From Roseibacillus sp. (GTDB lineage Bacteria; Verrucomicrobiota; Verrucomicrobiia; Verrucomicrobiales; Akkermansiaceae): a stretch of DNA of 64,000 bases. Location of the stretch: positions 1,408,001 through 1,472,000 of the forward strand of contig JBPOGI010000001.1 of NCBI GenBank assembly GCA_051251855.1, read 5' to 3'. The position numbers and the translations under genes are program-made. The notes under the pieces are model-generated. The model searched no databases. It worked only from the letters and a program-made list of their open reading frames with translations, and was not told the origin of the DNA. Each line of letters begins with the position of its first letter. The stretch's first letter is position 1. Shown in pieces: positions 36,362 through 45,345 of this stretch.

Positions 36362-37693
36362 CTATTTTCCGATGCAAAACTGGCTAAAAATACTCCCCAA
36401 AATTTCATCTGTATCAATCCGACCAGCAACCTCGCCCACGGCCTGCAGGGCCTCGCGCAAGGGTAAGCTAACGAACTCTGGCTCTTCGCCCGACGCCAGC
36501 ATCTGCCGAGCTTCAGACAAAGCCTCTTCCGCTCGTCTCAAACAATCTTGATGCCGCGCATTAATCGCAATCAGCGCACCTCCCGAATTCTCCGACAACC
36601 CTCCCCCAAGACGATCTGCCACTTCCTGTCGCAACACCTTCACTCCCTGCTCTTCTCTTACAGAAATCCTCACCGCCTCGGTCCCGTCCCAAGAATCGTC
36701 CTCGCCCAAATCCACTTTATTAAGAACCAAAAGCGCACTCTCGGACAACCGTTCTTCTTTTGGCCGGGAGACATCTACAAGCTCAAGAATCAGGTCCGCA
36801 TCCTCCATCCGCCGCCTCGCGCGCGCCATTCCCTCTTTCTCAATCACGCTTCCCTCATCACGCAGACCCGCGGTATCGATCAACCGCACCGGAAAACCAT
36901 CAAAATCTAACACCTCCTCCACAGTATCTCGAGTGGTCCCCGCCTCCTCGCTCACAATAGCGCGTTCATAGCCTAACAAGGCATTGAGCAAACTCGACTT
37001 TCCAGCATTGGGAGCGCCAATAATAGCAACGCGCGCTCCCTCGCGTAACAGACGACCTCTTTTCGCGGTCCCTAATAGCGAACTAATCGAGGTTTCTAAT
37101 TTCTTAAACGACAACTCCAAAGCCGACCCCGTCTCCGGTGAAATATCCTCCTCCGGAAAATCAATGTAAGCCTCCACATGTGCGGTCAGATTAATAATTT
37201 CCTCTCGAACCACCGCGACAGCATCACCCAAACTACCCGACAGTTGCTCGCGGGCCGCCTTCGCTGCCAAATCTGTCTGGGCCGAAATCAGGTCCATCAC
37301 CGCTTCCGCCTGAGTCAGGTCCAGCTTACTATTGAGAAAAGCCCGCAAGCTGAACTCCCCCGCCTCGGCCAAGCGAGCGCCACACTCCAAACAACGTTCT
37401 AACACCCTACGCGTGACATGGATTCCGCCATGGCCACTAATCTCCACCACATCCTCCCCCGTATAACTGCGAGGATTCCGGTATGCGACGACAAGAACAT
37501 CATCGATTGAGTGCCCCTCTTCATCAAGAACATCATCTCGAAAGGTCAGCCGAGGGGTGAGCGTCTCACTGCGAAACCGCTTTAACAACCGCTCGGCGAC
37601 TTTAAACACCCCGGGCCCGGACATTCGGACCAACGACACTGCCCCAACTCCAGGTGGACTCGCTATCGCCGCGATGACGTCGCTGCTACTCAC
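36362..37693 (-). CDS. mnmE: tRNA modification GTPase
   Basis: SYTGEDVVEISGHGG, LDLTQAEA, GAPNAGKSSL, GTTRD, DTAG, NKVD, FCIGK; probable GTG start at 37693. Confidence 0.97.
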   Translation of the reverse strand: MSSSDVIAAIASPPGVGAVSLVRMSGPGVFKVAERLLKRFRSETLTPRLTFRDDVLDEEGHSIDDVLVVAYRNPRSYTGEDVVEISGHGGIHVTRRVLERCLECGARLAEAGEFSLRAFLNSKLDLTQAEAVMDLISAQTDLAAKAAREQLSGSLGDAVAVVREEIINLTAHVEAYIDFPEEDISPETGSALELSFKKLETSISSLLGTAKRGRLLREGARVAIIGAPNAGKSSLLNALLGYERAIVSEEAGTTRDTVEEVLDFDGFPVRLIDTAGLRDEGSVIEKEGMARARRRMEDADLILELVDVSRPKEERLSESALLVLNKVDLGEDDSWDGTEAVRISVREEQGVKVLRQEVADRLGGGLSENSGGALIAINARHQDCLRRAEEALSEARQMLASGEEPEFVSLPLREALQAVGEVAGRIDTDEILGSIFSQFCIGK

Positions 37694-38936
37694 TTGCGTT
37701 CTCTTTCCAATTGCCTCGCTCGCCACCTAAATCAAGGAACTCCCAGCAAATGAGTTCACCCATCTGCAGCGATGGCTTTGGATCGTTTGACCAAACCAAG
37801 CTCACAGTCGCATTTCGAACAGGGGCCTTCACCACAATACGGTCACGCCACTTCAGAGAAGCCATAGCTCGGCCCAATTCGCTATCGTCCTTTACCAAGA
37901 CCTTGGCATAGTCGCTACTGTTCGCAGGGTCGCTAAACCGAAATACAGAGAACCCTTCTTTATCTCGTCCGTCCAAATCCACATCCTCTTGCACAAAGAC
38001 GCGGAAAATTCCTCGAGCTCCAGCTTCAGGATTATTTACAAACTGGTCTAGAAGACGAAATTTAGTTTGGCCATAAGTTTGCCAATCCAACTTAAGGCCC
38101 TCTGGAGTCTTCGCGAAAAACGCCATCACCTTCAAAGGACGATCCACAAAATTGTTCACCGCGGCTTCGGATACCAACCATTGATCTGGTTCTTCTATAC
38201 CATAACGCACTCGCAAAGGAGGGATGGGCCGGAAGAAGTTTCGAATCGTAAACTGCTCAGGCCGGTTATAGGTCATCAGAAAAATCCCCCGCTTGGTGTC
38301 GCTATCGCTAAGAGCTACTGGACTGAAAATACTCACGGGCGTACGAAACCCATCTTCCTCGAACTTCGAGTAGACAGACGCCATCTCGGCCTCGTTACTC
38401 GTTCCCCTAATGGTCCACTTAGCCCTCTCCTCAATCGTCTCAGCCTCTAGAAACCCTTGTAAAACAGTCTCAGCTTCTTCAATCCAACCTCGGGTCCGAT
38501 AGGCATTATCCTTCCTCTCTTCAGGACTCAGTGAGAGGCCGGCAGAAGGCTCCTCTTGAGCAACCTTCTTCTTGTCAGAAGAAAGAACCACCATTGCCGC
38601 CGCAGCAGCCAAAAGTAAAACTGCTCCAATCGAGGCAATGACAATAATCAACTTCCCTTTCCCCTGGCCTTGGCTTGGCTCACTTGGAGGGCTCCCTTGG
38701 GTAGCTGCCACGGGCTCAGGATTCTTGGGCTCAGGATTCTCGGCCACAGCCTTCACTGCTTGCTGAGGACGTGCCGCAGGCTCCACAAGAGGAGCTTGCG
38801 CTTCCAACGCTGGCGAAGTCACAAGCTCTCCGCATTTAGGACATGGGGCCGTCGTAGGCGGAAGATTGACCGGCACTTGGATGCCAGTTGCGCAATGCTT
38901 GCACTGGAACGTTCGAGTGGAATTGACTTCAGACAT
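37686..38936 (-). CDS. Hypothetical membrane-anchored protein with N-terminal zinc ribbon
   Basis: CKHC...CPKC, Pro/Ala linker, one TM, globular C-terminal domain. Confidence 0.8.
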   Translation of the reverse strand: MSEVNSTRTFQCKHCATGIQVPVNLPPTTAPCPKCGELVTSPALEAQAPLVEPAARPQQAVKAVAENPEPKNPEPVAATQGSPPSEPSQGQGKGKLIIVIASIGAVLLLAAAAAMVVLSSDKKKVAQEEPSAGLSLSPEERKDNAYRTRGWIEEAETVLQGFLEAETIEERAKWTIRGTSNEAEMASVYSKFEEDGFRTPVSIFSPVALSDSDTKRGIFLMTYNRPEQFTIRNFFRPIPPLRVRYGIEEPDQWLVSEAAVNNFVDRPLKVMAFFAKTPEGLKLDWQTYGQTKFRLLDQFVNNPEAGARGIFRVFVQEDVDLDGRDKEGFSVFRFSDPANSSDYAKVLVKDDSELGRAMASLKWRDRIVVKAPVRNATVSLVWSNDPKPSLQMGELICWEFLDLGGERGNWKENASE

Positions 38937-38953: not shown

Positions 38954-40051
38954 TTAGTGGGCTGCTAAAACATCACGAAGGACCGAGAGGCAACGTTCGT
39001 TCTCAGCAGGAGTCCCTACCGAAATACGAACCCATCCGGGGAGCTTGTAACCACGCATAGCTCTCACAATCACTCCCTGCTTCAGCATTTCGCTAAAGAC
39101 GCGGTCGCCATCTCCCACCTTGACCAAGACAAAGTTCGCATGACTCGGAACATACTCGAGGCCCATTTCCCCGAAAGTCTTCTCGAACAAATCCCGCCCA
39201 ATTTTGTTGTTATCAACAGTTGCTTGAATGTGAGCCGTATCCGCTATCGAGGCCAAAGCCGCCATCTGAGCGAGTTCGTTGGTATTAAAGGGTTGCCGCG
39301 CCTTTTGTAGAATCCCAGCTAGAGATACCGGAGCCATACCATAGCCAATGCGCAGACCAGCCAATCCTTGAGCCTTGGAGAAGGTGCGCATCACCACCAC
39401 ATTGCGCCCCTCCTTGACATATTGAATGGTATCAGGCGCATCCTCTAAAAACTCGTAATAAGCCTCATCGAAAACCGCGATGACATGCTCAGGAAGTTTA
39501 TTCAAAAAGCGCTCAATTTCCTCAGCCCCGACTAACGTCCCCGTCGGATTATTTGGATTGGCTACAAAAACAAGCCGAGTCTTATCAGTCACAGCGTCCG
39601 CCATAGCATCGAGATCATGCACAAATCCTGGGTCAGGAACCTCCACATATTTGGCCCCAAACAACGTTGCCATCAGCTTATAGACAACAAAGGCATGCTC
39701 CGCCGCAATCAAGGCCGCTCCCTCATTCAAAAAACAGTGGCACAGCAACTCGATGATTTCGTTCGAGCCATTGCCAAGAACAATATTCTCCATCTTCAAC
39801 CCATGCTTCTCAGCCAACGCCGAACGCAAGCGCACCCCGCCACCATCGGGATAGATATGCATATGCCGAGCCGCATCAGCCATCGCCTGCTGCGCCATGG
39901 GAGAGGGGCCTAACGGATTCTCATTACTCGCCAACTTCACAATCTCGGCAGGATTTAATCCCAATTCGAGGGCGGTCTCCTCAATCGGTTTTCCTGGCTC
40001 GTAAGCGACAAGATCGCACACAAATCGATTAGCGTATTGCTCTAAAGACAT
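38954..40051 (-). CDS. hisC: Histidinol-phosphate aminotransferase
   Basis: KLASNENP, GNGSNE, NPNNPTG, DEAY, RTFSKAQGLAGLRIG. Confidence 0.96.
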   Translation of the reverse strand: MSLEQYANRFVCDLVAYEPGKPIEETALELGLNPAEIVKLASNENPLGPSPMAQQAMADAARHMHIYPDGGGVRLRSALAEKHGLKMENIVLGNGSNEIIELLCHCFLNEGAALIAAEHAFVVYKLMATLFGAKYVEVPDPGFVHDLDAMADAVTDKTRLVFVANPNNPTGTLVGAEEIERFLNKLPEHVIAVFDEAYYEFLEDAPDTIQYVKEGRNVVVMRTFSKAQGLAGLRIGYGMAPVSLAGILQKARQPFNTNELAQMAALASIADTAHIQATVDNNKIGRDLFEKTFGEMGLEYVPSHANFVLVKVGDGDRVFSEMLKQGVIVRAMRGYKLPGWVRISVGTPAENERCLSVLRDVLAAH

Positions 40052-40211
40052 CTCCGGCAGCTTCCACCTTGCCTGACAGAAACTCAAATCCCAATTCCGC
40101 CAGTTCTCAAAACACCTTTCCAACCTCCACTAGCCTACTGCGCCCTCCTCTCCAAACCCTGTCTCGTTTTCTGTTTGGCGCTCATGCCTAACACGTCCAT
40201 CCTCCTTTCCT

Positions 40212-42365
40212 GTGGAATTCCCTGAAAACTTTCTCTTTGGAGTCGCCAATGCTGACCATCAGGTAGAAGCCTACGATCCTGAGCGAGAAGACGTTTGGGA
40301 CCTTTGGGAACGAAGCCAAAACCTCACTCCACGTAAAAAGGCCGTCGATTTCTGGAATCGTTATCCCGAGGACATCGACCGAGCAGCGGATTTAGGCAGC
40401 AAAGTCTTCCGGTTTTCGATTGCTTGGGCCCGCGTTCAACCCTCAGAGAACGAATGGGATCAGACAGCCCTCGACCACTATCGTGACCTTGCTGAATACA
40501 TCCGCAGCAAAGGAATGAAGGTCATGGTCACCCTCGTTCACTTCGCTTGGCCGGTTTGGGTAGAAAAACGAGGAGGACTCATCGGCGAAGACTTTCCCGA
40601 CCTATTTGCGGACTACGGCGAAAAGATGGCCGACCTTCTTGGCGACATCACAGACTATTGGATCACCTTCAACGAGCCCACCCAGCTCGTCTACGGTTTC
40701 ATCAAGCCTTGGTGGCAGAACAACTACTACATGCCGCCAGGCCTCCCCGAAGGCACCGGAGCCAGCGGCGAAGCCGAAGCCATCGGCAAGCTCGTCTACA
40801 ACCTCTTCCTCTCCCACGCGCGAGCACGCGTCCGCATCAAAGGCCTCTTTCCCAACACCAAGGTCGGCACCAATCCGCTCGTCACCGGATTCCCCCCTTG
40901 GCTCCAAAGCATTCTCGATAACCAGGCACACTCCCCGTGGCTCCTCAAGGCCACCTATCGCTTCAGCATGGCCGAACCACTCGTCGCAGGCAAAAGCAAA
41001 GTCGACATGGTCATCGGTGGGCTCAGCCAAGAAAGCCATGACAATCTGAGCTACAGCGACCCCTACGTCACCACAGGCAAGGCTATCATGGTGACTCGTG
41101 AGAAGGACGCTCAGGACATTGAAGCTCTCGCCGAAAGCAACGTTGGCTTCGTGGGACCATCCGCCGACCGAGGCCTCGCCGCGACCCATCTCCCCGAAAC
41201 CTGCCAGCTACAGCCTTTCGAAAACTATCGCGATGGCCGCGAAGCTCTCAAAGAAGGAAAAATCACCGCCCTTTATGGCGACGCCCTTCTCCTTCTTCCT
41301 GCTCAATTCAAGCAAAGAGACGACTTCCGCTTTCTCCTAGAGGACATCACCCGCGAGACCCATTCCGTCGGCCTACCCCTCGGTCACCCCGGTCTCATTT
41401 CCGTCGTCAACAACACCATTGACGACTTTAGTTGCGAAGTCTTCGGAGCCTGCACCCCCACTCGCCCTGAGGAACCCGTCAAGGATCCCGTTCCGCCTGT
41501 ATCCTTGGCCGACTTTTTCGCCAACGACTCTCTCCCCGGACCTCGCAAGATCATCGAAGGCGAAGGTCTCCGACGCATTCGCCGTCGAGGTTTTCTCAAA
41601 GTGGGCATCCGAGACGACCTCCCGGGAATCTGCGAAACTTGCCCCGAGCCAGGGGTCGAGGTTCAACTCGCCAAAGCCGTCGCCAAAGCCATCTTCGATG
41701 ATGAAGATAAAATCGAATTCGTGATTCTGAACCACGAAAAACCTCTCAAGGTTCTCGAAACCAAAGCCAGTAAACTTAACCTACTCTGGCGCTTTGCCGG
41801 AGCAGCCGGACTCATCGCCAACTCCAATTGGTGGTATCTCGGCATTCGCGGCAAACTCCCCAAAGGCCTATGCCCACCCGAGGCCCACCAAGCCCAAGAC
41901 TTCGTCGGTATGGACTACTACTGGGGTCTGCCCACCAGTAAGCTTCATCGATTCAACAGCCTCGTCGAAGCAGGCGAAGGACGTTTTCTCAACGCTCCCG
42001 TCTGGCCCGAAGGGATGGGACACGCCATGCGACGCTATCATCGCTGGTTTCCTAATCAGGAAATCATGGTCGTCGAGAACGGCTGCGTCCCCCTCGCCGA
42101 TGGCGTCACCCGCAAAGAATACCTCCGTGTCCACCTCGAAGAAGTAGCCAAAGTCTGTGCCGAAGGCGTGCCCGTCAGTGCCTATCTTTGCTGGTCACTC
42201 ACTTCTAATCGTGAGTGGGGTCACGCCTTCAATCATCAAACCGACTTTGGCCTTTACCACGTAGGCTTGGACACCGATCCCGAGCTCAAACGTAAAGCCA
42301 CTCCCGAAGTTGAATACTACCGAAACTTCATCGCGGAGCATCAAGCTAAGAAGACTCAACGATAG
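40212..42365 (+). CDS. Family 1 glycoside hydrolase with an inserted (apparently permuted) family-3 solute-binding domain
   Basis: GH1 motifs FRFSIAWARV, TFNEP, DFVGMDYY, VVENG, WSL..N.EW, FGLY; internal ~255-aa SBP_bac_3-like insert. Confidence 0.9.
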   Translation: MEFPENFLFGVANADHQVEAYDPEREDVWDLWERSQNLTPRKKAVDFWNRYPEDIDRAADLGSKVFRFSIAWARVQPSENEWDQTALDHYRDLAEYIRSKGMKVMVTLVHFAWPVWVEKRGGLIGEDFPDLFADYGEKMADLLGDITDYWITFNEPTQLVYGFIKPWWQNNYYMPPGLPEGTGASGEAEAIGKLVYNLFLSHARARVRIKGLFPNTKVGTNPLVTGFPPWLQSILDNQAHSPWLLKATYRFSMAEPLVAGKSKVDMVIGGLSQESHDNLSYSDPYVTTGKAIMVTREKDAQDIEALAESNVGFVGPSADRGLAATHLPETCQLQPFENYRDGREALKEGKITALYGDALLLLPAQFKQRDDFRFLLEDITRETHSVGLPLGHPGLISVVNNTIDDFSCEVFGACTPTRPEEPVKDPVPPVSLADFFANDSLPGPRKIIEGEGLRRIRRRGFLKVGIRDDLPGICETCPEPGVEVQLAKAVAKAIFDDEDKIEFVILNHEKPLKVLETKASKLNLLWRFAGAAGLIANSNWWYLGIRGKLPKGLCPPEAHQAQDFVGMDYYWGLPTSKLHRFNSLVEAGEGRFLNAPVWPEGMGHAMRRYHRWFPNQEIMVVENGCVPLADGVTRKEYLRVHLEEVAKVCAEGVPVSAYLCWSLTSNREWGHAFNHQTDFGLYHVGLDTDPELKRKATPEVEYYRNFIAEHQAKKTQR

Positions 42366-42407
42366 AACCCCAGTCGACTCTACGTTACTCATAGACAAGC
42401 ACTTGAA

Positions 42408-43958
42408 ATGAAAAAACTTCTTATCCTCTTACTCCTAGCCGGCTCCTTGGCTGCCGAGAAGAAGCCCAACATCGTCTTCTTCCTCGTCGACGACCTCGGG
42501 ATCAACGACCTCTCGGGCGAAGGCTCGACCTACTACGAGACTCCTCATATTGACCAACTTGCCAAAGAATCCGTCCGTTTCACCAACGGCTATTCCACCT
42601 GCCAAGTCTGCTCTCCATCCCGCGCCTCCCTTCTCACTGGAAAGTATCCTCCACGCATCGGCATCACCGATTGGATCGGAGCCGCTACCGGCAAAAAGTG
42701 GAAGCGTAACGACAAAGTCCTACCAGCTCCCAATGCGAGTAAGCTCTCCACTGAGGAATACACTCTCGCCGAGGCCCTCGCCGATGGCGGTTATGCGACC
42801 TGGTTTCTCGGCAAGTGGCATGTCGGCGGCGAAGGCTCCCACCCCGAAGACCACGGCTTCCAAGTCAACATCGGCGGACACCATCGTGGTTCCCCTCCTG
42901 GAGGCTTCTTCGCCCCCTTTAACAATCCCAAGATCAACAACGACCCTCCAGCAGGAACATCCCTTCCCCTTTGGCTCGCCGACCAAACTTCCGAACTCAT
43001 CACCACTCATCAAAAGGAGAGCGCTGAACAACCCTTCCTTGCCTATCTCTCCTTCTACTCCGTCCACGGCCCCATCCAAACCACTCCGGAACTCTGGAAA
43101 AAGTATCAACAAAAGGCCGCAACCTCCTCTCATCAAGGAGACCGCTTCGCTGTCGACCGCACCCTGCCCGTGCGCCAAGTGCAGGACTGCCCCATCTACG
43201 CCGGCATGATGGAAGCCCTCGACCAAGCCGTCGGCAAAGTGCTCAACACTCTTAGCGAACTCCAACTTGAGAACGACACCATCGTCATTTTCACCGGCGA
43301 CAACGGCGGCGTCACCAGCGGAGACGCCTTCGCCACCGCCGCTCTTCCCCTGCGCGGTGGCAAAGGTCGCCAATGGGAAGGTGGCCTGCGCGCGCCCTAC
43401 TACCTCAAAGTCCCCGGCACCAAACCCACCAACATCGACATCCCAGCAACTGGCACCGACTTCTACCCCACTCTCCTCGACCTCGCCGGTCTCGACGCAC
43501 AACCCGAGCAACATCTTGACGGACTCTCTCTCAAGCCACTTCTCGAAGGCTCAAAACTTAAAGAGCGCCCCCTCTTCTGGCATTACCCTCACTACGGCAA
43601 CCAAGGCGGCGAGCCCTCCTCCATCCTCCGACAAGGGGATTGGAAGCTCATTCAATACTTCGAAGACAACCGTCTCGAACTCTATCACCTCCCCTCCGAC
43701 ATCGGTGAACAAAAGGACGTATCCAACGAAAACGCTGAAATCGTAGCAACCATGCTCACCACCCTAGAAAGCCTTCAAGAGGAAACCGGAGCTCTCATTC
43801 CCGAGAAAGACCCTCGCTTCGCTCCCGCAAAGAAAAAGTTGCAACTCGAACAGCTTCACACCGTCAAGAAATCCCAACTCGAGAAGCAGCACGCCCGCTT
43901 TCTCGACCCTGACTTCAAACCCAACAAAACTTGGTGGGGCTCTCTCCCAATCGACTAA
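42408..43958 (+). CDS. Secreted sulfatase (S1)
   Basis: Signal peptide; PNIVFFLVDDLG, CSPSRASLLTG, GKWH, GDNGG. Confidence 0.95.
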   Translation: MKKLLILLLLAGSLAAEKKPNIVFFLVDDLGINDLSGEGSTYYETPHIDQLAKESVRFTNGYSTCQVCSPSRASLLTGKYPPRIGITDWIGAATGKKWKRNDKVLPAPNASKLSTEEYTLAEALADGGYATWFLGKWHVGGEGSHPEDHGFQVNIGGHHRGSPPGGFFAPFNNPKINNDPPAGTSLPLWLADQTSELITTHQKESAEQPFLAYLSFYSVHGPIQTTPELWKKYQQKAATSSHQGDRFAVDRTLPVRQVQDCPIYAGMMEALDQAVGKVLNTLSELQLENDTIVIFTGDNGGVTSGDAFATAALPLRGGKGRQWEGGLRAPYYLKVPGTKPTNIDIPATGTDFYPTLLDLAGLDAQPEQHLDGLSLKPLLEGSKLKERPLFWHYPHYGNQGGEPSSILRQGDWKLIQYFEDNRLELYHLPSDIGEQKDVSNENAEIVATMLTTLESLQEETGALIPEKDPRFAPAKKKLQLEQLHTVKKSQLEKQHARFLDPDFKPNKTWWGSLPID

Positions 43959-43985
43959 GCCTTCTGTTTGACGAAAAAATTGATC

Positions 43986-44804
43986 ATGAAAACTCTCTTC
44001 TTCCTCCTCGTCCTCACCAGCGTTGCTTCTGCCTTCAAATATCCGCCAAAGCTCAAAGACGCCCGCAGCGAAGTCTATCGCACCATCGACGAGCTCGAGC
44101 TCAAGGTCCACATTCTCGGCGAAACCGATCCCAAGAACCCCAAGCCAGCCATCGTCTTCTTTTTCGGAGGGGGCTGGAACGGCGGCTCCCCTGAGCAGTT
44201 CGCAAAACAGGGACACCACCTCGCTGAGCGCGGCATGATTGCCATTCTCGCCGACTATCGCGTCAAATCACGCAACAAAGTCAAACCCGTTGAATGCGTC
44301 AAAGACGCCAAAGCCTGTCTCGCCTGGGTTCGTGAAAACTCAAAGCGCCTCGGCATCGTTCCCGACAAAATCTGCGCCGCCGGAGGCTCTGCCGGGGGCC
44401 ATCTCGCCGCGGCTACAGGCACCCTCACGGGCTTCGGAAACCACGAGCGCCCCAATGCCATGATTCTTTTCAATCCCGGCGCCCAAATGGCCGACTACGG
44501 CGAATTTATCATGAAAGGCTTTGGAGAAGGCCGCGACCTCGGAGCGCCCGCCCTAAACTTCTGTCCCACCAACAACGTCGGTGAGCACACCCCTCCGACT
44601 CTCATTGTGCACGGAACCAAGGACAAAACCGTCCCGTTCTCTTCTGCTCAAGCATTCGAAGCCGCCATGAAGAAAGCCAACCGCCCCATCACCCTCATCG
44701 GCTACGAAGGACGCGGACACGGATTCTTCAACCGAGGCGAAGACTTCACCGCCACCCTCGCCGAAGCAGACAAATTCTTGGTCAAACTCGGCTGGATCAA
44801 GTAG
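43986..44804 (+). CDS. Secreted alpha/beta-hydrolase (esterase)
   Basis: FFGGGW oxyanion loop, GGSAGG nucleophile, HGTKD, GHGF. Confidence 0.92.
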   Translation: MKTLFFLLVLTSVASAFKYPPKLKDARSEVYRTIDELELKVHILGETDPKNPKPAIVFFFGGGWNGGSPEQFAKQGHHLAERGMIAILADYRVKSRNKVKPVECVKDAKACLAWVRENSKRLGIVPDKICAAGGSAGGHLAAATGTLTGFGNHERPNAMILFNPGAQMADYGEFIMKGFGEGRDLGAPALNFCPTNNVGEHTPPTLIVHGTKDKTVPFSSAQAFEAAMKKANRPITLIGYEGRGHGFFNRGEDFTATLAEADKFLVKLGWIK

Positions 44805-44850
44805 TTCAGTCTGGACTCTCCCGCCCGAATTCTGAATGGTCCCCCTCCTC

Positions 44851-45345
44851 ATGGACGACATTAAAATCACCATCCACACCAACAAGGGCGATATCAACAT
44901 CACCACCTTCCCCGATGACGCCCCCGTCACCGTAGCCTCGTTCCTTCACCTCGCCTCCAGCGGGTTTTACGATGGCCTCAAGTTTCACCGAGTGATCTCT
45001 AACTTCATGGTTCAAGGCGGTTGTCCACAAGGCTCCGGCACCGGTGGCCCAGGCTACAAGTTCGAGTGCGAATGCAAACCCAACCGTCGCCACGACAAGC
45101 CCGGCATCCTCTCCATGGCCAACGCAGGCCCCAACACCAACGGTTCCCAGTTTTTCATCACTCACGGACCGACTCCTCACCTCGATGGCAAGCACACCGT
45201 TTTTGGAGAGACCACCGAAGGCCAGGACGTGATCAACTCCATTCGTCAAAACGACACCATCAAGAACATCACCATCCACGGATCTACCGACGATCTTTTT
45301 GCCGCCCACGCCGATCGCATCGCCGATTGGAAGTCAGCTTCCTAG
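44851..45345 (+). CDS. Cytoplasmic cyclophilin-type PPIase
   Basis: [40 protein letters not shown]. Confidence 0.96.

Follow-up and report, generated by a model that had tools for sequence, protein, structure and literature searches.

A circularly permuted solute-binding domain lies within a family 1 glycosidase of Roseibacillus sp. and its relatives

Results

A family 1 glycosidase gene without room for a signal peptide

The 64,000-nucleotide stretch of contig JBPOGI010000001.1 from Roseibacillus sp. that was analyzed here is referred to as the window, and all positions given below are positions in this window. On its forward strand, positions 40212..42365 hold an intact open reading frame (ORF) for a 717-aa protein that unites a glycosidase of glycoside hydrolase family 1 (GH1) with an inserted, permuted solute-binding protein (SBP) domain. 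The gene begins with the start codon GTG and ends with the stop codon at 42363-42365; all of its parts described below are located on the + strand. An in-frame stop 5' of the gene lies at position 40131, and no in-frame ATG, GTG or TTG is present between 40131 and 40212. The start position is the same in relatives, which share the consensus M-x-F-P-x-x-F-L-F-G. Since the GH1 motif and fold commence at residue 3 and no in-frame start exists upstream, there is no room for a signal peptide, as the initial annotation of this DNA had already stated. The protein carries neither the export signal nor the lipoprotein signal expected of an SBP.

Two stretches of the protein match Pfam GH1 (PF00232), with an E-value of 2.2e-51 and a score of 175.1 bits (cut-off, 22.6 bits). 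The first stretch, aa 2-241, corresponds to positions 4-239 of the 453-position profile, and the Pfam match obtained for the C-terminal part in the strain's own genome covers profile positions 335-452. On the basis of the Pfam matches and the modelled secondary structure, the N-terminal part of the barrel (aa 1-254, 40212..40973) comprises strands beta1 to beta5 followed by two extra helices (aa 229-252), while the C-terminal part (aa 516-717, 41757..42362), which is also recognized by profile NF041004 (aa 597-691 = positions 360-450 of 479), comprises helix alpha5 and strands beta6 to beta8. Both glutamates that had been put forward as catalytic are in place: E155, the acid/base residue of the motif TFNEP (codon 40674..40676), and E622, the nucleophile of the motif VVENG (codon 42075..42077), with 467 aa between them. 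Conservation was assessed in an alignment of 251 sequences, 121 of them from the whole-protein search and 130 more distant ones from the insert search and the distant profile described below. Both glutamates are present in all 251 sequences, and the same is true for Q17, H110, N154, Y569, W661 and E668; W669 is present in 250. The glycone-binding set of GH1, consisting of a Gln after beta1, a His after beta3, a Tyr after beta6 and a Trp plus a Glu-Trp pair after beta8, is contained therein. With NCBIfam TIGR03356, the equivalog model for GH1 beta-glucosidase (BGL), the protein scores 180.7 bits against a cut-off of 478.5 bits and thus stays below the equivalog level, so that it is not classed among the ordinary beta-glucosidases. 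The gene is the sole Pfam GH1 match in its own 4.96-Mb genome, which is 95% complete, and the database name for this type of protein is just "family 1 glycosylhydrolase". Judged from its sequence, the gene encodes an apparently cytoplasmic, retaining beta-glycosidase of family GH1 whose catalytic and glycone-binding residues are intact.

Two SBP pieces in swapped order

The insert adds about 260 residues after beta5 and had originally been described as two SBP pieces in reverse order, the first at aa ~263-406 and the second, beyond a linker, at aa ~452-518. Profile and alignment results agree with these limits. Piece 1 (aa 255-411, 40974..41444) corresponds to the normally C-terminal two thirds of an SBP and contains the end of helix alpha2, strand beta3 of lobe 1, a hinge, the whole of lobe 2, and the return strand and C-terminal helix of lobe 1. 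Piece 2 (aa 451-515, 41562..41756) corresponds to the normally N-terminal third, i.e., beta1, alpha1 and beta2 of lobe 1. The linker between them (aa 412-450, 41445..41561) joins the native C- and N-termini of the SBP. NCBIfam TIGR01096 aligns aa 262-386 with its positions 82-212 of 250, and NCBIfam NF008885 (PEB1-type) aligns aa 453-508 with its positions 31-90 of 259, which is the swapped order relative to the TIGR01096 match. When the insert was compared with the PDB sequences by phmmer, 25 SBP sequences were matched. For 2yjp_A, aa 261-401 of the protein correspond to residues 115-256 of the chain and aa 454-509 to residues 49-107 (20-160 and 213-268 in insert numbering, to which 241 is added to obtain the protein position).

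The same order emerged from a comparison with ordinary SBPs, for which the 150 best matches of the full-library insert search were narrowed down to the 69 proteins of 200-350 aa and a piece was counted as matched at an independent E-value (i-E) below 0.01. Both pieces were matched by 45 of the 69 proteins and stood in swapped order in every one of the 45, with a median gap between the pieces of 9 aa in the target protein (range -3 to 77). The remainder matched piece 1 only (12), piece 2 only (9) or neither (3). A hidden Markov model (HMM) was then built from 33 ordinary SBPs, which had been chosen for matching both pieces and are not an independent sample. Against this model, the native insert yielded two domains, positions 103-247 followed by 25-102 of 272, which abut at 102/103, and the computationally re-ordered insert yielded one domain, positions 30-247 of 272, with 141 bits and an E-value of 7.7e-45. 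The SBP fold elements of the insert therefore do not follow the normal order from N- to C-terminus; rather, two swapped segments cover the parent fold once and without overlap, as is characteristic of a circular permutant. These results bear out the earlier proposal that the two halves are swapped, complementary and non-overlapping, and they answer the check suggested with it, the end-to-end alignment of the re-ordered insert with a single SBP.

The assignment to SBP_bac_3 held with one reservation. Pfam SBP_bac_3 (PF00497) scores 22.2 bits on the insert alone and stays below its cut-off of 26.4 bits; it is not reported for the whole protein. In relatives of the same architecture the family is detected with 76.1 (P0133), 65.2 (P0134) and 61.6 bits (P0130). 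The SBP similarity of the insert is secured by the NCBIfam models, the PDB sequences, the relatives and the predicted fold. There is hardly any doubt that a complete, circularly permuted family-3 SBP domain of the Venus-flytrap type resides within the GH1 enzyme, between beta5 and beta6.

Predicted fold and path of the chain

The full-length AlphaFold2 model, which was calculated from a 58-sequence alignment, reached a predicted local distance difference test score (pLDDT) of 78.9 and a predicted template modelling score (pTM) of 0.70. It contains a (beta/alpha)8 barrel, whose strands beta5 (aa 217-226) and beta6 (aa 564-572) flank the insert where it had been placed before. The best PDB matches obtained with Foldseek are GH1 enzymes (E ~6e-18 and weaker; template modelling (TM) score 0.66-0.77 on the target). 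The insert alone (aa 258-515) was modelled with a pLDDT of 87.0 and a pTM of 0.80 and adopts the bilobed fold of type II periplasmic binding proteins. Its Foldseek matches are SBPs for polar amino acids (4ymx, 5eyf, ArgBP, GlnBP, PEB1a and LAO; E 1.7e-10 and weaker, about 150 columns), and VIA-align superimposed it on amino-acid SBPs with Z values of 12-14 and 140-170 aligned residues, residues 4-157 of the model corresponding to the C-terminal two thirds of the SBP chains. Both aligners are sequential and therefore cover only one piece, piece 1. That piece 2 completes lobe 1 is a prediction that rests on the high pTM, on two hydrogen-bonded DSSP strands of piece 2 in the insert model (aa 462-467 and 501-506, pLDDT > 90) and on the profile match of the re-ordered insert. 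The structure prediction suggested in the initial annotation thus delivered both a GH1-like barrel and a confident SBP-like insert.

The path of the chain was drawn from the alignments and from the general topology of SBPs. Beyond beta5 and the two extra helices, the chain departs from the barrel and enters the SBP at the end of alpha2 and beta3 (K-V-D-M-V-I-G-G). It passes through hinge 1 into lobe 2 (aa ~290-378, 41079..41345), the mobile jaw of the flytrap, which was delimited by alignment and is absent from a sister clade of ~620-aa proteins, and runs back through hinge 2 into a strand of lobe 1 and the C-terminal helix. The ~40-aa linker then leads to the native SBP N-terminus (beta1, alpha1, beta2), from where the chain continues into GH1 helix alpha5. 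The permutation breaks the SBP in the loop between beta2 and alpha2 of lobe 1; therefore, lobe 1 carries both junctions with the barrel, and neither hinge crossing is interrupted. As the host site is a beta-to-alpha loop (beta5-alpha5), the insertion is located on the catalytic face of the barrel.

Distribution and origin of the architecture

Of the 7998 candidates scored in the search with the whole protein, 543 were relatives at E <= 0.001. Nearly all of the 120 relatives listed are 703-763 aa long and are aligned with a query coverage of 98-100%; Roseibacillus persicicus, Luteolibacter and Haloferula are among the sources, and the automatic JGI name of relatives joins 'beta-glucosidase...' with 'ABC-type amino acid transport substrate-binding'. 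In the collection of contigs with one genome per species, 258 stretches encode a relative, complete Luteolibacter chromosomes among them. The full-library search with the insert also led to distant proteins of 680-800 aa, which align across the whole insert with 25-33% identity. Pfam scans of 18 distant representatives revealed GH1 together with SBP_bac_3 in 16, GH1 only at the threshold used in one, and a non-GH1 protein in the last case. A profile of 16 distant members retrieved 665 more proteins, with Nostoc sp. PCC 7524, Nostoc, Calothrix, Chlorogloeopsis, Brasilonema, Halotia and Roseiflexaceae among the names. One cluster of relatives belongs to Thermoflexales, and in one Atlas cluster with 93 members Vulcanimicrobiota is the most frequent source. 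The feature search of the Protein Atlas returned only the family's own clusters, whose names record the two-family composition. The architecture is thus old and occurs in hundreds of relatives from at least four phyla, namely Verrucomicrobiota, cyanobacteria (Nostocales), Chloroflexota and Vulcanimicrobiota, and this homolog search, which had been recommended as a check, rules out a one-off misassembly. The distant members are colinear with the window protein and share the identical insertion site and order of pieces, which points to a single origin. Within its phylum the gene is patchy and not universal: The insert-only search matched two of the 401 sampled genomes of the phylum, the genome of origin included.

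Some family members deviate in length or at the N-terminus. P0128, P0135, P0137 and P0143 (484-552 aa) begin about 10-90 aa before piece 1 and possess the C-terminal GH1 part only. Probably, these are truncated gene calls at contig ends, a split form being the alternative. P0225 (771 aa) has a hydrophobic N-terminal extension (residues ~1-25) that resembles a membrane anchor or a signal, whereas the other aligned distant members have no N-terminal extension or a polar one.

The insert is colinear with proteins that have two to four tandem SBP_bac_3 domains (shown by Pfam in 5/5 checked), and the alignment spans a domain junction. In P0126, for example, residues 137-406 match query positions 20-263 in a single stretch. 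A colinear match over the junction of tandem SBPs is the prediction of a duplication-and-trimming route to permutation, and we infer from these alignments that the insert originated from a tandem SBP-SBP unit that was trimmed at both ends. Two tandem proteins, P0172 (1171 aa) and P0187 (1241 aa), carry three or four SBP_bac_3 domains followed by a C-terminal FGE-sulfatase (formylglycine-generating-enzyme-like) domain, another uncommon combination of SBP-3 domains and an enzyme fold.

Residues of the cleft

In GlnBP and LAO, the bound amino acid is clamped by a Thr and an Arg in the loop after beta3 and by an Asp in lobe 2. Among the 130 distant sequences the canonical Thr is present in 117, the Arg in 129 and the Asp in all 130. 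In the window protein, the Asp is kept as D357, while S275 occupies the position of the Arg and S272 that of the Thr. The clamp loop is two residues shorter in the 114 full-length Verrucomicrobial proteins, and these have D (70), E (17), S (12), N (6), A (6), G (2) or R (1) at the Arg position; in the 16 Roseibacillus-like proteins nearest to the window protein the residues are S (10), D (3), N (2) and A (1). The Asp at the alpha-ammonium position (D357) is found in 114/114 full-length Verrucomicrobial as well as in 130/130 distant proteins. Further residues in the cleft region are fixed among the full-length Verrucomicrobial proteins, i.e., K290, H392 and T288 (114/114 each) and R343 (113/114), and the inserts of most of this clade share 33-40% identity with that of the window protein. 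This pattern suggests that the binding site in the Verrucomicrobial clade is still under selection but has changed its ligand.

A sister clade lacking the jaw

Six proteins of 615-627 aa, encoded on separate contigs, lack exactly aa ~290-378, i.e., lobe 2, and retain lobe 1, the linker and all GH1 residues. An interpretation of these ~620-aa forms as fragments was rejected, because the same clean internal deletion is present on six separate contigs and in one clade. In a FastTree phylogeny based on GH1 columns only (250 of the 251 rows; P0012 was dropped as partial), the jaw-less proteins are monophyletic (6/6, support 1.0) and form the sister group of the 16 Roseibacillus-like sequences including the window protein (support 0.998); both groups are nested in the Verrucomicrobial clade (support 0.989). 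Arg is present at the canonical clamp position in six of the seven sequences under 660 aa. The comparison of sequences speaks for a structural integration of lobe 1 and the linker and for a jaw function that at least one lineage can dispense with. Note that the window protein has a C-x-x-C pair (aa 474-477, 41631-41642) in the SBP beta1-alpha1 loop, which is in contact with the ligand in ordinary SBPs. The pair is found in Roseibacillus-like sequences and in five of six aligned jaw-less sequences, and Luteolibacter-type sequences have S-x-x-C instead.

A conserved latch motif in the linker

Confidence in the linker is low in the full-length model (pLDDT < 50 at aa 412-428 and 440-447) except around a motif at aa 428-436 (P-V-S-L-A-D-F-F, 41493..41519), which we term the latch on the basis of complex prediction and conservation. 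The barrel parts (aa 1-254 and 516-717) and, as their partner, the insert (aa 255-515) were submitted to ESMFold2 as three chains. The complex scored 0.63, with 0.00 for the best of three controls, a contact agreement between runs of at least 42% and a partner pLDDT of at least 65. A score at this level is attained by 116 of 157 solved complexes versus 2 of 215 mismatched pairs, counts that calibrate the present case only roughly given the user-made alignment, the use of three chains and their origin from one polypeptide. As the chains are pieces of one polypeptide, the result says little about association itself. All confident contacts are between linker aa 428-436 and GH1 aa 28, 31-32, 35-37, 118-119, 171-172 and 175-181. 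P429 is conserved in 120 of the 121 sequences of the Verrucomicrobial set, S431 and L432 in all 121. In the distant set (n = 130), the corresponding counts are 103 for P, 90 for T plus 9 for S, and 96 for L plus 10 for I and 8 for V. In the partner loop of GH1, Y-x-M-P-P-G-L-P, P176 and G177 are invariant (251/251). Accordingly placed by the complex model, a conserved P-x-S/T-L motif of the linker is predicted to dock on barrel loops of the catalytic face. The linker thus lies between the two pieces as first described, though not as a passive spacer.

Genomic context

The GH1-SBP gene is followed at a distance of 42 bases by a gene for a sulfatase (Pfam Sulfatase and SGSH_C; 42408-43958, +) and, after a further 9 bases, by one for an alpha/beta-hydrolase (BD-FAE/Abhydrolase_3; 43968-44804, +). 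The three genes may form an operon. Their arrangement was found in Roseibacillus-like relatives only, in which a further ~0.9-1.3 kb often separates the sulfatase gene from the GH1 gene. Among 77 loci, the aminotransferase and the sulfatase that neighbor the gene in the window recur in three and seven, respectively, restricted to close Roseibacillus-like relatives; for the sulfatase, two of these matches have an identity of only ~26% and are not at the corresponding place in the locus. The commonest neighbor families in genome loci (at most 13 of 70) are LysM, MatE, HlyD and ABC/FtsX efflux parts. Of 41 metagenome loci of at least 6 kb, 8 have a GMC oxidoreductase gene beside the GH1-SBP gene (e.g., L129:195-2138, - strand); it is the most frequent neighbor in metagenomes and too rare to be called conserved. 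The Rfam scan of positions 39800-44900 at E <= 0.1 gave no match to a riboswitch or any other Rfam element. Upstream, an ORF of 416 aa (37686-38936, -) overlaps the start of mnmE by 41 bases and matches no Pfam family at E <= 0.01. It is present at the same place in two relatives (L001 and L002) with 58-60% identity.

Discussion

A ligand-responsive mechanism, in which a lid closes on a small molecule, appears quite possible for the GH1-SBP proteins, if not outright probable. Lobe 1 would be anchored on the barrel by three tethers, the entry, the exit and the P-x-S/T-L latch, the latter sitting on the loops after beta1, beta3 and beta4, and lobe 2 would be a free jaw. A small molecule in the cleft, which is lined by D357, K290, R343, H392 and T288 in the clade of the window protein, would shut the jaw; the cyanobacterial and Chloroflexota members with their Thr/Arg/Asp cleft may use an alpha-amino acid as ligand. 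Closure would affect the nearby entrance of the active site, in its accessibility or its shape, and thereby render the enzyme responsive to the ligand. More tentatively, the proteins could be the natural counterpart of engineered insertion switches, with the active site gated by jaw closure on a cytoplasmic metabolite. For cyanobacteria and Chloroflexota this metabolite might be an alpha-amino acid, for Verrucomicrobiota some other ligand. The strong conservation of cleft residues counts in favor of ligand gating.

Several observations weigh against such gating. Lobe 2 has been deleted in one clade with the catalytic residues kept, and so the enzyme can persist without the flytrap. All three tethers are on lobe 1, which implies that jaw closure is not transmitted via the connections and that coupling must be steric. 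The ESMFold2 complex contains no confident contacts between the lobes and the barrel and does not place the cleft relative to the active site. The Arg that canonically binds the carboxylate is lacking in the window protein's own clade (0/16) and occurs in only 1 of the 114 full-length Verrucomicrobial proteins; because of this loss an ordinary amino acid is doubtful as ligand of the window protein. Furthermore, a conserved gene neighbor that would hint at a ligand or substrate was not found among the genome loci (maximum 13/70) and metagenome loci (maximum 8/41). The jaw-less clade, the tethers on lobe 1 only and the lost Arg weaken the case for a simple amino-acid switch in the window protein. 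The cyanobacterial and Chloroflexota members, which have the full Thr/Arg/Asp clamp, are the better test objects.

Instead of regulating the enzyme, the flytrap, above all lobe 1 with the ligand loop, could serve as a specificity domain that binds the substrate, either at an aglycone of acidic or amino-acid-like character or at a distal portion, and presents the glycosidic bond to the GH1 site, for instance in a beta-glycosylated amino acid, peptide or metabolite. We consider this somewhat unlikely. It would fit with the insertion in the beta5-alpha5 loop on the catalytic face and with the breakpoint in the SBP beta2-alpha2 loop, which in GlnBP and LAO structures is one wall of the pocket for the ligand side chain, such that the pocket could open toward the barrel. 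The geometry of GH1 enzymes speaks against it, however, as their pocket is deep and the distance from an SBP on the rim to subsite -1 is probably too great for a small glycosyl-amino acid, and the complex prediction did not confidently place any contact between a lobe and the barrel. Retention of the Arg in six of the seven sequences under 660 aa and its loss in the sister clade are in keeping with a lobe 1 that acts without the jaw, but in these six related sequences the residue may be mere inheritance. That the gene is the only one for a GH1 enzyme in its genome is a further point in favor of such a domain. A transporter or pathway gene for a substrate of this kind is not among the neighbors in the loci compared.

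A purely structural role is rather improbable. In this case, a former ligand binder would have been kept for folding, stability, oligomerization or protein contacts, with a vestigial cleft. The loss of lobe 2 with retention of catalytic residues would be explained, as would the degenerate canonical binding residues of the Verrucomicrobial clade and the fact that the sole confident predicted contact involves the linker motif and not the cleft. On the other hand, D357, K290, R343, H392 and T288 show no or almost no variation across 114 sequences at an insert identity of 33-40%, and Thr, Arg and Asp are kept in 117-130 of the 130 distant members across phyla, which is hard to explain without a ligand. 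An artefact, be it misassembly, a chimeric gene call or chance resemblance to SBPs, is practically out of the question and refuted by the results listed above, since the subthreshold Pfam SBP_bac_3 score of the window protein (22.2 versus 26.4 bits on the insert) is outweighed by colinear architecture in hundreds of independent sequences including complete chromosomes, by the presence of both Pfam families in 16 of 18 full-length-type representatives (76 bits for P0133), and by the re-ordered profile match (E 7.7e-45) and fold matches (Z 12-14).

The proposal of a ligand-responsive GH1 enzyme can be set against a number of known systems. Like ordinary GH1 enzymes, such as Thermotoga maritima BglA (1uz1), the Bacillus pyruvylated beta-galactosidase (5yif) and the Streptomyces griseus enzyme (8kap), the window protein has the (beta/alpha)8 barrel, the NEP and ENG motifs and the glycone set Q, H, N, Y, W and E-W (Foldseek E ~1e-17, TM 0.66-0.77 on target); unlike them, it has ~260 extra residues after beta5, and its identity to solved GH1 enzymes is 14-18%. 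With the family-3 SBPs for polar amino acids (GlnH, ArgBP, PEB1a 2v25, LAO 1lst and AncQR 4zv1), the insert shares the bilobed type II fold, the motifs VD-x-[VI]-[IA]-x-G/A, S-x-P-Y and G-D, the Asp at the alpha-ammonium position and, in distant GH1-SBP members, the T-x-x-R carboxylate clamp. It differs from them in being permuted, non-exported and not free-standing and, in the clade of the window protein, in the 2-aa deletion in the clamp loop and the missing Arg.

A natural fusion of a related kind is found in MltF, a membrane-bound lytic transglycosylase. The binding of muropeptides to its SBP-like N-terminal domain switches the glycan-cleaving domain to the active state (PMC10746161); here, too, a module resembling SBP_bac_3 is fused to a domain that cleaves glycans. 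The NCBIfam MltF model NF008112 weakly matches the insert of relatives (E 5.4e-07). In contrast to the GH1-SBP proteins, MltF is an end-to-end fusion with the SBP module in normal order, is periplasmic and has a lysozyme-like catalytic domain in place of a GH1 barrel. In engineered constructs, the periplasmic-binding-protein fold has been coupled to an output domain by insertion and circular permutation (PMC6335823). Structures of iGluSnFR are among the fold matches of the insert model. A maltose-binding protein combined with beta-lactamase is another engineered example. As in these switches, iGluSnFR included, insertion and permutation bring both junctions of the domain together. The engineered proteins are man-made, however, and it is usually the output domain that is permuted or inserted, whereas here a natural permuted binding protein sits in an enzyme and the coupling is only putative. 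By analogy, then, MltF is the closest natural analogue in function, and engineered insertion and permutation switches together with sensors based on periplasmic binding proteins are the closest in design.

The ligand-binding domain (S1S2) of ionotropic glutamate receptors is likewise a clamshell resembling SBP-3 that is tied to an effector by two connections, and Pfam Lig_chan-Glu_bd weakly matches the inserts of relatives. In these receptors, the channel is inserted into the clamshell at lobe 2 without permutation. In GH1-SBP proteins, conversely, the clamshell is inserted into the effector and attached via lobe 1. Tandem SBPs, for example SBD1-SBD2 of GlnPQ (6h30) and multi-SBP proteins of the sensor type, resemble the insert in that it is colinear with the C-terminal part of one domain, a linker and the N-terminal part of the next. 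They are the expected intermediate of a permutation by duplication, but consist of whole domains in series, none of which is embedded in an enzyme.

A published description of the GH1-SBP architecture, its permutation or its function was not found in the literature covered, which excludes most subscription journals and supplements. In the main text of the CIRPIN permutation survey, a term search found no mention of periplasmic or solute-binding proteins or of glycoside hydrolases, and in PMC12632509 both Pfam names are merely listed in a table. The window protein represents an enzyme with an SBP-type accessory domain, in this case built by permuted insertion.

The family provides what appears to be a clear case of permutation via tandem duplication and trimming inside a host domain. 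It also illustrates that sequential profile and fold searches under-call permuted domains, as Pfam misses the SBP domain in the window protein. Moreover, it draws attention to a GH1 lineage, apparently cytoplasmic, that extends across Nostocales, Chloroflexota, Vulcanimicrobiota and Verrucomicrobiota. Provided that the glycosidase is indeed controlled or directed by the flytrap, the family would be a natural answer to the problem that engineers solve by insertion and circular permutation, and would offer hundreds of diverged examples together with two natural "mutants", the clamp-rewired clade and the jaw-deleted clade. Should the reading as a switch be true, natural variants would sample the design space, with the clamp rewired in one clade and the jaw deleted in another.

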